Positions 12,195-22,749 of a stretch of DNA of 23,024 nt are shown here, piece by piece. The stretch's first letter is position 1. The number at the start of each line of letters is the position of its first letter. The notes under the pieces were generated by a model. The model saw nothing but the letters and a program-made list of their open reading frames with translations. It was not told the DNA's origin and searched no databases. The stretch lies in NCBI GenBank assembly GCA_052168235.1, contig JBQLZK010000086.1, positions 1 to 23,024 on the forward strand, given 5' to 3'. The position numbers and the translations under genes are program-made. Source of the DNA: Thainema sp. (lineage in GTDB: Bacteria; Cyanobacteriota; Cyanobacteriia; Phormidesmidales; Phormidesmidaceae).

Positions 12195-12382
12195 TATCCA
12201 GTCGTGGACTACAGCATTTTCCAGCCTAGTGAGGTTGATCGGAATGTTTCTCCGCCTTCGGCGGAGAAACATTCCTGTACTCCACCAGCGTGAAAAATGC
12301 TATAGAACCTGATTATTTAAGTGAATGGCTAACATCGCGAACCTTCACCCAAATAATTATGGATTTTCAACCAGACTTGATA
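12195..12382 (-). mobile_element. MITE-like element, family B copy 3, interrupted by a family A element
   Basis: Minus strand TATCAAGTCTGGTTGAAAATCCA...CAGGTTCTA|[family A]|GTCCACGACTGGATA. About 95 bp when the insert is removed. Confidence 0.6.
12212..12302. mobile_element. MITE-like element, family A copy 2 (91 bp, TA duplication)
   Basis: TA[CAGCATTTTCCA...TGAAAAATGCTA]TA. Perfect 16-bp stem with 3-nt loop at 12241-12275. Confidence 0.65.
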
Positions 12383-12520
12383 TTTAGGCAGGGTTGCCCT
12401 TGGAACATTATGAAGTGAAACTCTACATTTTGTCGGCGTCTCAGCGACATCGCCAAATTAAGCAAAACGCCACCCGCAAGACACGGTAGAATTCTTCTGG
12501 CTTAACAGGAGGGCAGACCG

Positions 12521-13858
12521 CTGAAGACTCGTATTATCATCGTCCGGCATGGCGAAAGTACCTACAACATTGAATCCCGCATCCAGGGACATTGCGACGA
12601 ATCCACGCTGACCGAAACAGGGCGACAGGGAGCAATTCAAGCGGCTCAGGCACTGCAAGGTATTCAAATTGATGCCGTATATGCCAGTCCCTTCAAGCGG
12701 GCAAAAGAGACGGCTGAGCTGATTGTGGCTCACACCAATGCGCCTGCGCCCACGTTCTCAGATGACCTGAAAGAGGTGAACCTGCCGCCGTGGGAGGGGA
12801 TGACCTTTGATCAGGTGAAGGCACAGTATCCCGCTGAGTACAAAATTTGGCGGCAGGAAACTCACAAGCTGGTGCTGCAAATTGAGCAGCCAGATGGCAT
12901 TGTCGAATTTCGGCCACTGCCAGAGCTGTATGTGCAAGCCCAGCGCTTTTGGGATGCCACCCTGTCCCAGCATGAAGGCCAAACCATTCTGCTTGTTGGC
13001 CACAGCGCCATTAATCGGGCCTTGATTAGCACGTTAATTGGCCTTGGCATTGAGCGGTTCTCCTCGCTCTACCAGTCCAACTGCGGCATCAGCATTTTGA
13101 ATTACGACTCGGCTAGCGGCAATGTCCAGATCGAGTCGATGAACTTGACGGGACACTTGGGGCAGCCTGTACCTCGGCCTCGGCGATCACACTCTGGCAT
13201 TCGCGTCTTACTCGTGCGCCACGGCGAAACGGACTGGAATCGCCAGAAGCGGTTCCAGGGTCAGATCGACGTGCCGCTGAACGATAACGGTCGCCAGCAG
13301 GGACAGCTAGTGGCCGACTTCCTGAAGACGATTCGGATTGATCGAGCCGTCAGCAGTCCGATGCTGCGGCCCAAGGAAACGGCGGAAGCGATTTTGCAGC
13401 ATCATGCCGATGTGGAGCTGGCGCTAGATGACGGGCTGCGGGAAATCAGCCACGGTTTGTGGGAAGGCAAGCTGGAATCGGAAATTGAAGCCGAGTTTCC
13501 TGGCGAACTCGAGCGCTGGCAAAGTACGCCCGAAGTGGTGCAAATGCCGGAAGGTGAAAACCTACAGCAGGTCTGGGAACGAGTGGTGATTTCTTGGCAG
13601 AACCACATTAAAGACTGTGGCGATCCAGAGGAGTTGCTGACCCTACTGGTCGTTGCTCACGATGCGGTGAATAAGGCCATCCTGTGTGATGTTGTGGGGT
13701 TAGGGCCAGAAGCGTTCTGGGTCTTCAAACAGGGCAACGGTGCCGTCAGCGTGATTGACTACCCCCAAGGTTTGAACGGTCGCCCCATCCTGCGGGCATC
13801 GAACATTACGACTCACTTCGGCAGCGTGTTGGATACCACCGCAGCCGGAGCACTTTAG
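12521..13858 (+). CDS. Two-domain histidine phosphatase (phosphoglycerate mutase-like / phosphoserine phosphatase-like), 445 aa, CTG start
   Basis: KTRIIIVRHGESTYN...YASPFKRAKETAE and a second LLVRHGETDWN domain. In-frame TAA at 12503, AGGAGG at 12507-12512, CTG at 12521. The ORF track start at 12725 omits the first RHG motif. Confidence 0.88.
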   Translation: MKTRIIIVRHGESTYNIESRIQGHCDESTLTETGRQGAIQAAQALQGIQIDAVYASPFKRAKETAELIVAHTNAPAPTFSDDLKEVNLPPWEGMTFDQVKAQYPAEYKIWRQETHKLVLQIEQPDGIVEFRPLPELYVQAQRFWDATLSQHEGQTILLVGHSAINRALISTLIGLGIERFSSLYQSNCGISILNYDSASGNVQIESMNLTGHLGQPVPRPRRSHSGIRVLLVRHGETDWNRQKRFQGQIDVPLNDNGRQQGQLVADFLKTIRIDRAVSSPMLRPKETAEAILQHHADVELALDDGLREISHGLWEGKLESEIEAEFPGELERWQSTPEVVQMPEGENLQQVWERVVISWQNHIKDCGDPEELLTLLVVAHDAVNKAILCDVVGLGPEAFWVFKQGNGAVSVIDYPQGLNGRPILRASNITTHFGSVLDTTAAGAL

Positions 13859-13878
13859 GATGCCAGGTGAATTTAATT

Positions 13879-13945
13879 GTAGGGGCGGGTTTAGCCCAGT
13901 CATGCTGCTGCTGAGTCAAACCGGGACAACGAAACCCGCCCCTAC
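13879..13945. repeat. REPIN-like GTAG doublet
   Basis: GTAGGGGCGGGTTT ... AAACCCGCCCCTAC, a perfect 14-bp inverted repeat. Confidence 0.7.
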
Positions 13946-13987
13946 GGCAGGGCGTATTTTTCGCGGATAACGTGTAAGGAACTGTGC

Positions 13988-15259
13988 ATGACTCGTGAAC
14001 TGTTACAACAGGTGCGACTGCTTGATCCGTTAACGGATACGGATCAGGTGACAGACGTGCTGATTGAAGATGGCGTTATAACTGCGATCGCACCTTCACT
14101 GTCTACCGATGCAGCCGATTCGACACAGATCATCACAGCGCAGGGATGCGTTCTTGCCCCCGGTTTGGTTGACCTCTATAGCCACAGTGGCGAACCCGGT
14201 TTTGAAAGTCGAGAAACCTTAGCTTCGCTCAAAGCCGCTGCCGCCGCTGGTGGCTTTACCCGGATTGCGGTTTTGCCAGATACCGATCCGCCCATCGATC
14301 AGCCGAGCCAAGTAGCGGCCCTGCAAGCCCAGTGGTCACGATCGGCTACTGCCAATCAGCCCCGGCTGTATCCCTGGGGCGCATTGACGTTGGGGGTTAA
14401 AGGAGAACACCTGGTTGAGTTTGCAGAACTAGCTGATGCGGGTGCGGTTGGCTTTGCCGATGGCTATCCGATTCAGAATCCGGTGCTGCTGCGACGATTA
14501 CTTGAGTTTTTGCAGCCACTTGAGCAACCGATTGCGCTGTGGAGTTGCGATCTCACCTTATCCGGTGATGGTACGGCTCGGGAAGGATTCGACTCGATTC
14601 GATTTGGTCTGCCTGGCAATCCAGCGCTATCGGAAACCGTGGCCCTGACCTCCATTTTGGAATGCGTTGCGGCCATTGGCACCCCGGTTCACATCATGCG
14701 TGTTTCCACTGCCCGCAGCGTGGAGCTAATTCATGCCGCCAAAGAGCGGGGATTGCCGATTACTGCCAGCACAACCTGGCTGCATTTGTTGTGCAATACC
14801 GGGGATTTAGCGACCTATGACCCCAATCTGCGGCTTGAGCCTCCCTTGGGTACACCCGCCGATCAGCAAGCGCTAATTGAGGGCGTTAAAGCTGGAGTGA
14901 TCGATGCGATCGCAGTTGACCACAGCCCCTACACCTACGAAGAAAAAACGGTCGCATTCAACGAAGCTCCACCAGGAGCCATTGGCTTAGAGTTGGCATT
15001 ACCCTTACTCTGGCAGCAGTTGGTGGAATCCCAAACGCTGTCTGCACTGGAGCTTTGGCGAGCTTTAAGCGCGAATCCAGCTAACTGTCTCAACCAGTCA
15101 CCCGCGCGCGCGCAGGTCAATGCACCCGCAGAACTAGTGTTATTTAATCCAGCAGAAACTTGGGTGGTCAATGAGGAAACATTGCGATCGCAATCCTCAA
15201 ACACTTCTTGGCTCAACCAAACCATTCAGGGCAAAGTCCAACGCATCTGGACACCATAA
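13988..15259 (+). CDS. pyrC: Dihydroorotase-like protein (PyrC'-type; first metal-binding His replaced)
   Basis: PGLVDLYSH.GEPGFE.RETL, AAAGGFT, HIMRVST, LEPPL, AIAVDH.P, APPGAIGLE. Confidence 0.85.
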   Translation: MTRELLQQVRLLDPLTDTDQVTDVLIEDGVITAIAPSLSTDAADSTQIITAQGCVLAPGLVDLYSHSGEPGFESRETLASLKAAAAAGGFTRIAVLPDTDPPIDQPSQVAALQAQWSRSATANQPRLYPWGALTLGVKGEHLVEFAELADAGAVGFADGYPIQNPVLLRRLLEFLQPLEQPIALWSCDLTLSGDGTAREGFDSIRFGLPGNPALSETVALTSILECVAAIGTPVHIMRVSTARSVELIHAAKERGLPITASTTWLHLLCNTGDLATYDPNLRLEPPLGTPADQQALIEGVKAGVIDAIAVDHSPYTYEEKTVAFNEAPPGAIGLELALPLLWQQLVESQTLSALELWRALSANPANCLNQSPARAQVNAPAELVLFNPAETWVVNEETLRSQSSNTSWLNQTIQGKVQRIWTP

Positions 15260-20078: not shown

Positions 20079-20347
20079 GAGCTTATTCTGAGCGATCCAC
20101 AGGGGAAATAGGTCATATCGAGAAGCGGATTTTGTTGACCGATTCTGAACTTAGACCCACAGTTTAACGGCTACGCGCCTGCGACAGCGTTCGATGGCGT
20201 TGTACAGGTGTGCCAAAGAGGTGCCAAAGAGAAAGTCCCAAACGTTTTAGCGGGCCAGCACATTGCAGTAATGGCTGACCCGCTGAGCTAACTTATTCAG
20301 TTGTAAGGTCCAAGGTTTGTCCTATAGCTAACTTCGAGTGAAGTTAT

Positions 20348-20465
20348 TGAGATTGCAGGACTTGAACCTACCTCTCCGCAGTGCATCTGACGATGCATGG
20401 ATTGACATAGCTCCCGAAGGAGTGCCGCCACTCCACCTACAGATGAGGTAGAGTGCCACAATCTC
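20348..20465 (-). ncRNA. tRNA-like structured RNA without an anticodon loop (pseudo-tRNA)
   Basis: Acceptor-like stem GAGAUUG/CAAUCUC-A. Canonical T arm GUAGG-UUCAAGU-CCUGC. Three internal hairpins, one capped by cUUCGg. G-U wobbles appear only on the minus strand. Confidence 0.6.
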
Positions 20466-20480
20466 TTCCACATACTAACA
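20466..20480 (-). promoter_or_regulatory. Extended -10 promoter of the tRNA-like RNA
   Basis: Minus strand TG-T-TAGTAT (20480-20472), 6 nt before the first G of the acceptor-like stem. Confidence 0.55.
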
Positions 20481-20591
20481 GAGCTATCCGGTTTGGACAC
20501 AAAGAAAAATTAAGATATAGCGGAGCAGTTGAATCGCAGAGATAAATATCTGTTTCGAGTTGTTAATGAGCATTTTAAGTTTGGATAAGTT

Positions 20592-20647
20592 CAAAACAGA
20601 GAACGGGAGAGAAATTGCTAGCAATTTCTCTCCCGTTCTCTGTTTTG
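20592..20647. repeat. Perfect 56-bp palindrome downstream of petL (possible terminator or MITE core)
   Basis: CAAAACAGAGAACGGGAGAGAAATTGCT|AGCAATTTCTCTCCCGTTCTCTGTTTTG, no mismatches and no spacer. Confidence 0.85.
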
Positions 20648-20667
20648 CTGGATTTTCGAAGTCTATC

Positions 20668-20760
20668 TTAGATAAGTTTGACAGCCTTTAGGCCAAAGTA
20701 AAGACCCATTGCCGCCGCAAATGAGATCGCAAGATAAACAAAATAAACAACAACAGCCAT
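20668..20760 (-). CDS. petL: Cytochrome b6f complex subunit VI (30 aa), absent from the ORF track
   Basis: MAVVVYFVYLAISFAAAMGLYFGLKAVKLI: single TM helix with the PetL-type L.FGL..VKLI end. GAGGA RBS upstream. Confidence 0.9.
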   Translation of the reverse strand: MAVVVYFVYLAISFAAAMGLYFGLKAVKLI

Positions 20761-20930
20761 GAATCGAGTCCTCGTTGATACCAAAATCTAAAATTGCAAT
20801 ATTTCTATTGAACCATTTCGGATGACTTTCATTTCATCTGGCATTCAATAGACCAAATCCCAGCAGAGGGAGGCTGCCGCCGCAATGGGGCAACCTGAGC
20901 TATACAACATGCCATCGTCGCCTCCACCAC

Positions 20931-22535: not shown

Positions 22536-22740
22536 GTTCCACTGCGGCGTTGGTGACTACCAACAATGTTTTACGATCTATGCTTTATGTGAAAGGGAAC
22601 CAAAAGTCTCGATGGCAGTATACCGAGCTTGCGTAGGGCTTCGTGCTTTACCCTGTCACTCGGAAACTTAAAATTGAGGAAAAGGTACCCACCTGGTTTT
22701 TCCAGGTCGAAAGCTGAGGTAAGACGGCGTTGCGGGGAAC
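22536..22740 (+). ncRNA. ssrS: 6S RNA (SsaA-type, ~205 nt)
   Basis: Long rod fold: GTTCCACTGCGGCGTTG pairs with CGGCGTTGCGGGGAAC (many G-U pairs), with GGGAACC/GGTACCC and CCGAG/CTCGG helices and A-rich bubbles. Own promoter and terminator. Matches recalled cyanobacterial 6S motifs. Confidence 0.8.
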
Positions 22741-22749
22741 ACAAGCATA

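Follow-up and report, generated by a model that had tools for sequence, protein, structure and literature searches.

Does the region just downstream of petL in Thainema sp. hold a small RNA that imitates a tRNA, or a structured RNA of another kind? The question is raised by nucleotides 20348–20466 of the window examined here (i.e., the whole 23,024-nt stretch of contig JBQLZK010000086.1), which an original prediction had read on the minus strand as an independently promoted tRNA mimic without anticodon. This element was compared between its source genome (G000; 7.5 Mb and 99.99% complete), another genome of the same genus (G001), and the public sequencing runs X1, X2, X4, and X14. The flagged stretch most likely constitutes the 5′ domain of a ca. 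230-nt non-coding RNA gene on the minus strand, and not a tRNA look-alike.

tRNA and RNA family searches

The minus-strand sequence of the element agreed letter for letter with the segmented string from which the tRNA mimic had been drawn, all of the drawn stems could pair, and, as had been noted, no CCA is encoded after the last stem. The likeness resides in a 6-bp terminal stem that abuts, in the source genome, a 5-bp hairpin with a UUCAAGU loop followed by a single A (cf. the T-arm-like word GUAGG-UUCAAGU-CCUGC at 20356–20371, minus strand). The acceptor and T stems that can be drawn amount to 6 + 5 bp instead of 12 bp, and as far as can be read from the sequence, the loop that takes the place of the D loop (CAUCUGU; CGUCUGU in G001) offers no GG partner for an elbow.

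ARAGORN returned no tRNA or tmRNA genes in the whole window, in line with the earlier statement that the element is not a tmRNA, and one standard tmRNA was located elsewhere in the source genome. When introns were allowed together with an 80% threshold (-ps80), a tRNA-Leu(cag) was proposed that had a 36-nt intron and two acceptor mismatches. Since these relaxed settings produced 42–54 calls in five shuffled copies, as against 42 in the 23-kb window itself, this call was regarded as noise. Counting both strands, the source genome has 200 copies of the GGTTCRANNCC word and 67 tRNA genes, and the presence of one such word in a 23-kb window is unremarkable since ca. 0.4 non-tRNA copies are expected there.

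A search of the window against Rfam 15 at gathering thresholds returned only a 6S RNA (SsrS) gene (22536–22742, plus strand; 85 bits vs. a gathering score of 46.4), located 2 kb from the element. With E-values up to 10, the region 20100–20750 yielded no tRNA-clan or tmRNA match, and the weak matches overlapping the element were mir-5681 (E = 0.47 and 7.2) and mascRNA-menRNA (14 bits vs. 42.5, E = 8.2), the latter being its best tRNA-like echo. Stronger sub-threshold rows belonged to a palindrome at 20594–20645. The Rfam and ARAGORN searches therefore placed no tRNA, tmRNA, or other family on the element.

An att-site remnant of a tRNA was rejected, as its acceptor is not common to any tRNA of the source genome (best local score, 16 of 32) and none of these tRNAs matched beyond a generic T arm. 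A bacterial Y RNA (YrlA) was rejected as well: the gene of its partner Rsr (TROVE) is usually adjacent, and PF05731 (Rsr/TROVE) is absent from the 99.99% complete source genome, while control genomes did match. Compared with tRNA-like structures in general (i.e., the tmRNA domain, mascRNA, and the YrlA module), the likeness of the element consists of its terminal stem abutting a hairpin with the GGUUCAAGUCC word in the source genome. It differs from them in having neither a model match nor an elbow partner loop, in not keeping the T-loop word in G001 or X4, in the thermodynamic disadvantage of its tRNA-like fold, and in the apparent continuation of the RNA past the "discriminator". Finally, the element resembles 6S RNA in that its 5′ and 3′ parts pair into a long rod, but it lacks both a large central bubble and an RF00013 match, and the genuine 6S gene is the one nearby.

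A predicted rod fold that the variants of the element retain

The minimum free energy (MFE) of 20348–20466 on the minus strand was –58.3 kcal/mol, as compared to –36.3 ± 3.7 kcal/mol in 200 dinucleotide shuffles (z = –5.9), none of which (0/200) folded as well as the element. The plus strand reached only –40.1 kcal/mol, revealing a strand-asymmetric structure. Both the MFE and the centroid structure were a long Y-shaped rod of 119 nt, in which element positions 2–11 pair with 104–118, 13–22 with 89–98, and 24–30 with 86–91, and in which a three-way junction carries a C(UUCG)G-capped arm (positions 31–70) and a short GUCA-loop hairpin (positions 71–84). G-U pairs made up 7 of the 46 MFE pairs, and the rod pairs had a median ensemble probability of 1.00 (minimum 0.67).

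The cloverleaf-like arrangement of the original prediction, by contrast, reached –44.0 kcal/mol in the source genome, i.e., 14 kcal/mol worse than the rod, and its five T-stem pairs had ensemble probabilities of 5e-8 to 2e-5. Instead of forming a T arm, the T-arm-like word is part of the 3′ strand of the rod, where it mostly lies in an internal loop. The same preference was found in every variant, the rod being 11–15 kcal/mol better than the cloverleaf in 4/4 cases (G000 as above; G001, –55.1 vs. –39.9; X4, –60.5 vs. –46.6; X2, –53.2 vs. –42.0 kcal/mol), and RNAalifold on the G000 and G001 sequences also returned the rod. The acceptor-like stem and canonical T arm can thus be drawn, as had been claimed, but are not what the sequence is predicted to adopt.

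The homologue in G001 is 95% identical to the element, with differences at 6 positions over 119 nt. Mapping these differences onto the tRNA-like fold broke two of its G-C pairs into A-C (one in the variable arm and one in the T stem, where the G53 equivalent is an A), leaving 74/76 cells paired, and the equivalent of T-loop U55 is a C in both G001 and X4. In the rod, on the other hand, 92/92 cells remained paired across both genomes, the changes being C-G to U-G, G-U to A-U, or in unpaired positions. Taking G001, X4, and X2 together, seven of the 13 substitutions affected stems of the rod, all of them preserving a standard pair, and the other six were located in loops or bulges. On the tRNA-like fold, 2 of 7 break. 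The UUCG loop became UCCG in G001, which is still a UNCG loop. Double-sided, pair-restoring changes were not encountered among the two full sequences and the partial contig variants, and formal covariation is nil because only two full sequences exist. The search for homologues with compensatory changes thus provided a homologue in which rod pairing is kept, though no double compensatory change.

The region of the element is non-coding. Open reading frames of 67 and 47 aa over the element contain stop codons in G001, a 37-aa frame on the plus strand has 4 residue changes from 6 substitutions in G001, and the 67-aa frame had no Pfam match. Since frames on both strands were either interrupted or non-synonymously changed, and Pfam remained blank, the coding hypothesis was rejected.

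A conserved block that includes petL

On the minus strand, the element is part of a block that consists of a promoter-like region, petL, a palindrome, a poorly conserved spacer, a –10 box, the rod, a small hairpin, a tail, and a 3′ hairpin. The petL gene itself (20668–20760, minus strand) encodes a cytochrome b6f subunit of 30 aa (PF05115, 33.2 bits vs. a cut-off of 30.1), and is of a size that goes unannotated and is easily missed by ORF length cut-offs. It is followed by a perfect palindrome of 26 bp (20594–20645), flanked on either side by U runs, which is present in a single copy in the genome and is likely the petL terminator. In Rfam, this palindrome also scores, below threshold, against several families of plant miRNA precursors.

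Upstream of the rod lies an extended –10-like box (TGtTAGTAT, 20472–20480, minus strand), which lies 5–6 nt before the first stem (6 nt in the original prediction) and from which a start at ca. 20465–20467 would be predicted. In G001 this box reads TGTTACTAT with TACTAT as its hexamer, in which the first T, the A, and the last T are retained. Nevertheless, the TGnTAnnnT word is common by itself, and a two-hexamer promoter scan called no promoter at this position.

Directly after the rod (20348–20466), the predicted fold of 20236–20466 contains a 7-bp hairpin with an ACUC loop (20329–20346, minus strand), which is invariant in G001 and for which no differences are listed in X4. This is followed by a weakly structured tail (20285–20328, minus strand) with two AAGUUAGCU copies and unpaired probabilities of mostly 0.3–1.0 in the ensemble, which together with its conservation mark it as a candidate interaction surface. 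A predicted 3′ hairpin of ca. 15 pairs (20249–20284, minus strand), without a U tract after it, closes the block.

Differences to G001 were unevenly distributed over these parts: 36/187 in the spacer, 6/119 in the rod, 1/63 in the tail including the 7-bp hairpin (20285–20347), and 2/36 in the 3′ hairpin. The RNA part as a whole was ca. five times better conserved than the spacer (9/218 vs. 36/187; Fisher p = 1.9e-6), although part of this conservation reflects a short divergence time, as all holders are close relatives. In X4, no difference is listed between 20276 and 20353. The tail is both the best conserved part and unpaired, which suggests that selection acts on the sequence of an open region. 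Two features of the 3′ hairpin count against a non-coding RNA gene: the lack of a U tract after it, and a pair in which both partners changed from U-G in the source genome to C-A in G001 (locus L009), which is non-standard on this strand. Exchanges between G-U and A-C are known from rRNA comparisons.

The RNA and petL stay together while their surroundings change

The petL gene is 97% identical in G001 and also present on the X4 contig, so that petL and the RNA are linked in 3/3 contexts (G000, G001, and X4). G000 and G001 could be aligned only over ca. 20250–20810, outside of which their sequences were unrelated, and the block in X4 has its borders at 20244 and 20816, with homology ending just past the 3′ hairpin (ca. 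20244). In the source genome the block is flanked by an M20 peptidase gene on the plus strand, which has a terminator of its own, and by a tetrapyrrole methylase gene on the minus strand, and in G001 the 96%-identical orthologues of both are located on other contigs. Hence, petL and the RNA have remained neighbours through rearrangements on either side. Within the block, the palindrome region was replaced by 104 unrelated letters in X4.

In most other genera of the family (petL loci L010–L039), a convergent membrane-protein gene is situated within ca. 30–250 nt after petL. This gene encodes ca. 300 aa or more with a GSRNG motif and looks O-antigen-ligase-like by eye; its adjacency to petL has been lost in genus g1. 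Among 30 petL loci of other genomes, only that of G001 had a similar downstream sequence and none had a tRNA there. Rfam was run on 20 of the 30 loci and yielded no families.

Distribution of the element

The element is single-copy in the 7.5-Mb source genome and does not belong to a repeat family. The BLAST comparison called for at the outset placed it in one other genome only, G001: queries with the element against 61 relatives, with the 3′ part against all 173 order genomes (order and family coincide here), and with the whole RNA against these 173 order and 401 class genomes gave only short chance matches beyond G001. Covariance models did not extend this range. The model of the 5′ rod (R1) had two extra matches among 151 family genomes, both at chance level (E = 0.08 and 0.55) and one of them (L042) being a long palindrome that matched on both strands, and the model of the tail (R2) had one chance-level match (E = 0.065) among 151 class genomes. 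An exact-pattern scan of genome contigs with a word from the 5′ domain retrieved only the G001 contig, exact-pattern scans of metagenome contigs gave 0 matches, and plasmid and phage collections gave none either.

Eighteen public sequencing runs shared 0.05–0.17 of the words of the stretch, six of which are labelled as RNA (X2 and X15–X19), and contigs were compared for X2, X4, and X14 of these as well as for X1. The X1 sequence is identical to that of the source genome and is not treated as independent, since X1 may be the source sample. X4, a biofilm DNA run, yielded one 1479-nt contig covering 20244–20559 and 20666–20816 with ca. 5% difference. A more distant relative was present in X14, in which a single 151-nt contig matched only 20282–20368; beyond this match, a ca. 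70% similar version of the 3′ strand of the rod could be recognized by eye, meaning that the tail is kept while the 5′ domain diverges.

The literature searched in full text, including passages of PMC6202907 and PMC12873609, described no petL-linked or tRNA-like cyanobacterial sRNA.

A metatranscriptome contig on the predicted transcript

In metatranscriptome run X2, a single contig of 218 nt was found on the 651 nt compared, covering 20244–20452 plus 10 nt at the 3′ side. Only the first 14 nt of the predicted transcript are thus not covered, while petL and the spacer have no cover at all, which hints at a discrete transcript with the predicted ends. As it concerns one contig (depth 3.7) from one run, and DNA can occur in RNA libraries, the X2 contig is a hint rather than proof.

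The earlier proposal that a small RNA is transcribed here from a promoter of its own fits with the kept –10 box, the palindrome, the disrupted reading frames, the conservation of the RNA part, and this contig, while the negative promoter scan speaks against it. The proposed mature 3′ end at 20348 fared less well, as the X2 contig crosses this position unbroken (a hint against such an end) and sequence conservation likewise runs across it.

An RNAduplex scan of 8769 start regions (mean –18.3, sd 4.5, best –39.0) provided no credible target, and was uninformative because the energies were inflated by long loops. A genome search for complementary matches, of which the best were 13–15 nt long (E ≥ 1.3), provided no credible target or partner either.

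A candidate lineage-restricted sRNA

Taken together, these data give about an even chance that the minus strand from 20466 down to ca. 20234 is a single-copy, genus-restricted non-coding RNA gene just downstream of petL, and an even to slightly better than even chance that a real non-coding RNA with the rod fold is involved. Its preferred fold, its strand, its inability to code for protein, its better conservation relative to the spacer, and its narrow distribution are shown by the data, whereas a discrete transcript with these ends is hinted at. The element is probably a lineage-restricted candidate sRNA, i.e., an orphan bacterial sRNA absent from Rfam. In such an RNA, the ends of the 5′ domain would pair into a long helix with the three-way junction and its UNCG-capped arm on top, followed by the small hairpin, a weakly folded tail of ca. 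45 nt, and the 3′ hairpin. A more tentative reading, somewhat short of an even chance, is that the RNA acts in trans as a riboregulator: its conserved, open tail would be the site at which target mRNAs pair or a protein binds, and the rod and 3′ hairpin would shield the RNA ends from nucleases.

Cyanobacterial trans-acting sRNAs include Yfr1, PsrR1, and NsiR4, families of which are present in Rfam. Like these, the element would be a small independent intergenic unit with a putative –10-type promoter, a structured body, an open conserved stretch, and a 3′ hairpin. Unlike these, it is confined to one genus rather than to a wide clade, matches no Rfam family, and is larger and more structured (ca. 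230 nt, with a 119-nt rod). If confirmed, the element would add one more lineage-specific structured sRNA in cyanobacteria, from a host genus that is poorly studied and mostly uncultured, and one that adjoins a cytochrome b6f subunit gene. Its linkage to petL, held through genome rearrangement, would then be a modest starting point for the study of RNA regulation related to photosynthesis.

In a highly improbable variant, some of the molecules would refold such that the terminal stem and the T-like hairpin form a tRNA-type minihelix, after which RNase P/Z-type enzymes could cut after 20348. Such cleavage would release the conserved tail as the active sRNA, and can be likened to mascRNA-type or tRNA-linked (3′ external spacer) processing. 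Refolding of this kind would explain why, in X14, the remainder of the rod is kept far less well than the sequence that begins with the T-like word.

Alternative explanations

The absence of any function of its own is unlikely, though less so than the other two alternatives. According to this explanation, the element would be young self-complementary intergenic DNA, left by an insertion or a duplication-inversion, that looks conserved only through close kinship. It agrees with a distribution limited, among the species genomes searched, to 2 that belong to the same genus, with the lack of double compensatory changes and of any family, target, or partner, and with expression resting on one contig. 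Against it stand a conservation five times that of the neighbouring spacer (p = 1.9e-6), pairing that is preserved at all seven substituted stem positions on one strand only, a UNCG loop that is kept, and the presence of the element as a single copy rather than as a member of a repeat family. Moreover, while hairpin symmetry might be invoked for the rod, it cannot explain the conservation of the tail (1/63), because the tail is unpaired.

Quite unlikely is the possibility that the element belongs to the petL transcript, either as its 3′ UTR or as a processing-and-stability element reached by read-through of the palindrome. The element is on the same strand as petL and ca. 200 nt downstream of it, and their linkage in 3/3 contexts persists though both flanks differ. 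Cyanobacteria are known to have sRNAs derived from 3′ UTRs downstream of photosynthesis operons. Against this stand the perfect 26-bp palindrome with U runs that separates the two, the spacer being the least conserved part (36/187) with its core replaced outright in X4, and the X2 contig stopping at 20452, short of both spacer and petL. In other genera of the family, the convergent gene close behind petL leaves no room for an element of this kind.

Finally, a tRNA mimic, in which an acceptor-like stem would stack on the T arm to give a minihelix or elbow for RNase P/Z processing, CCA addition, stability, decoy function, or integration, is very unlikely: against the abutting stems, the weak mascRNA-menRNA echo, and the better retention in X14 of the stretch from the T-like word onward stand the blank ARAGORN and Rfam searches with a relaxed call at shuffle level, the 14 kcal/mol deficit and T-stem probabilities of at most 2e-5, the T-stem and variable-arm breaks in G001, the C at the U55 equivalent, the missing GG loop, an acceptor foreign to the genome's own tRNAs, an RNA contig and conservation that cross the proposed 3′ end, and a genome with its own tmRNA and no Rsr/TROVE protein. 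More generally, a T-loop-like word and a terminal stem are insufficient for calling a tRNA mimic when the nearest relative and thermodynamics favor another fold, as they do for the rod of the candidate sRNA.

Elsewhere in the source genome, ARAGORN reported a tRNA with anticodon CTA (contig C38, 26305–26377, minus strand), labelled Pyl, which is possibly a suppressor or an odd tRNA and whose T arm has 14 nt in common with the element, i.e., at chance level. Contig C99 contains 22 tRNA genes within 2.8 kb (12246–15023, plus strand), some of them with odd sequences and unrelated to the element. Long tRNA arrays have been reported from Anabaena PCC 7120, and the C99 array resembles these.
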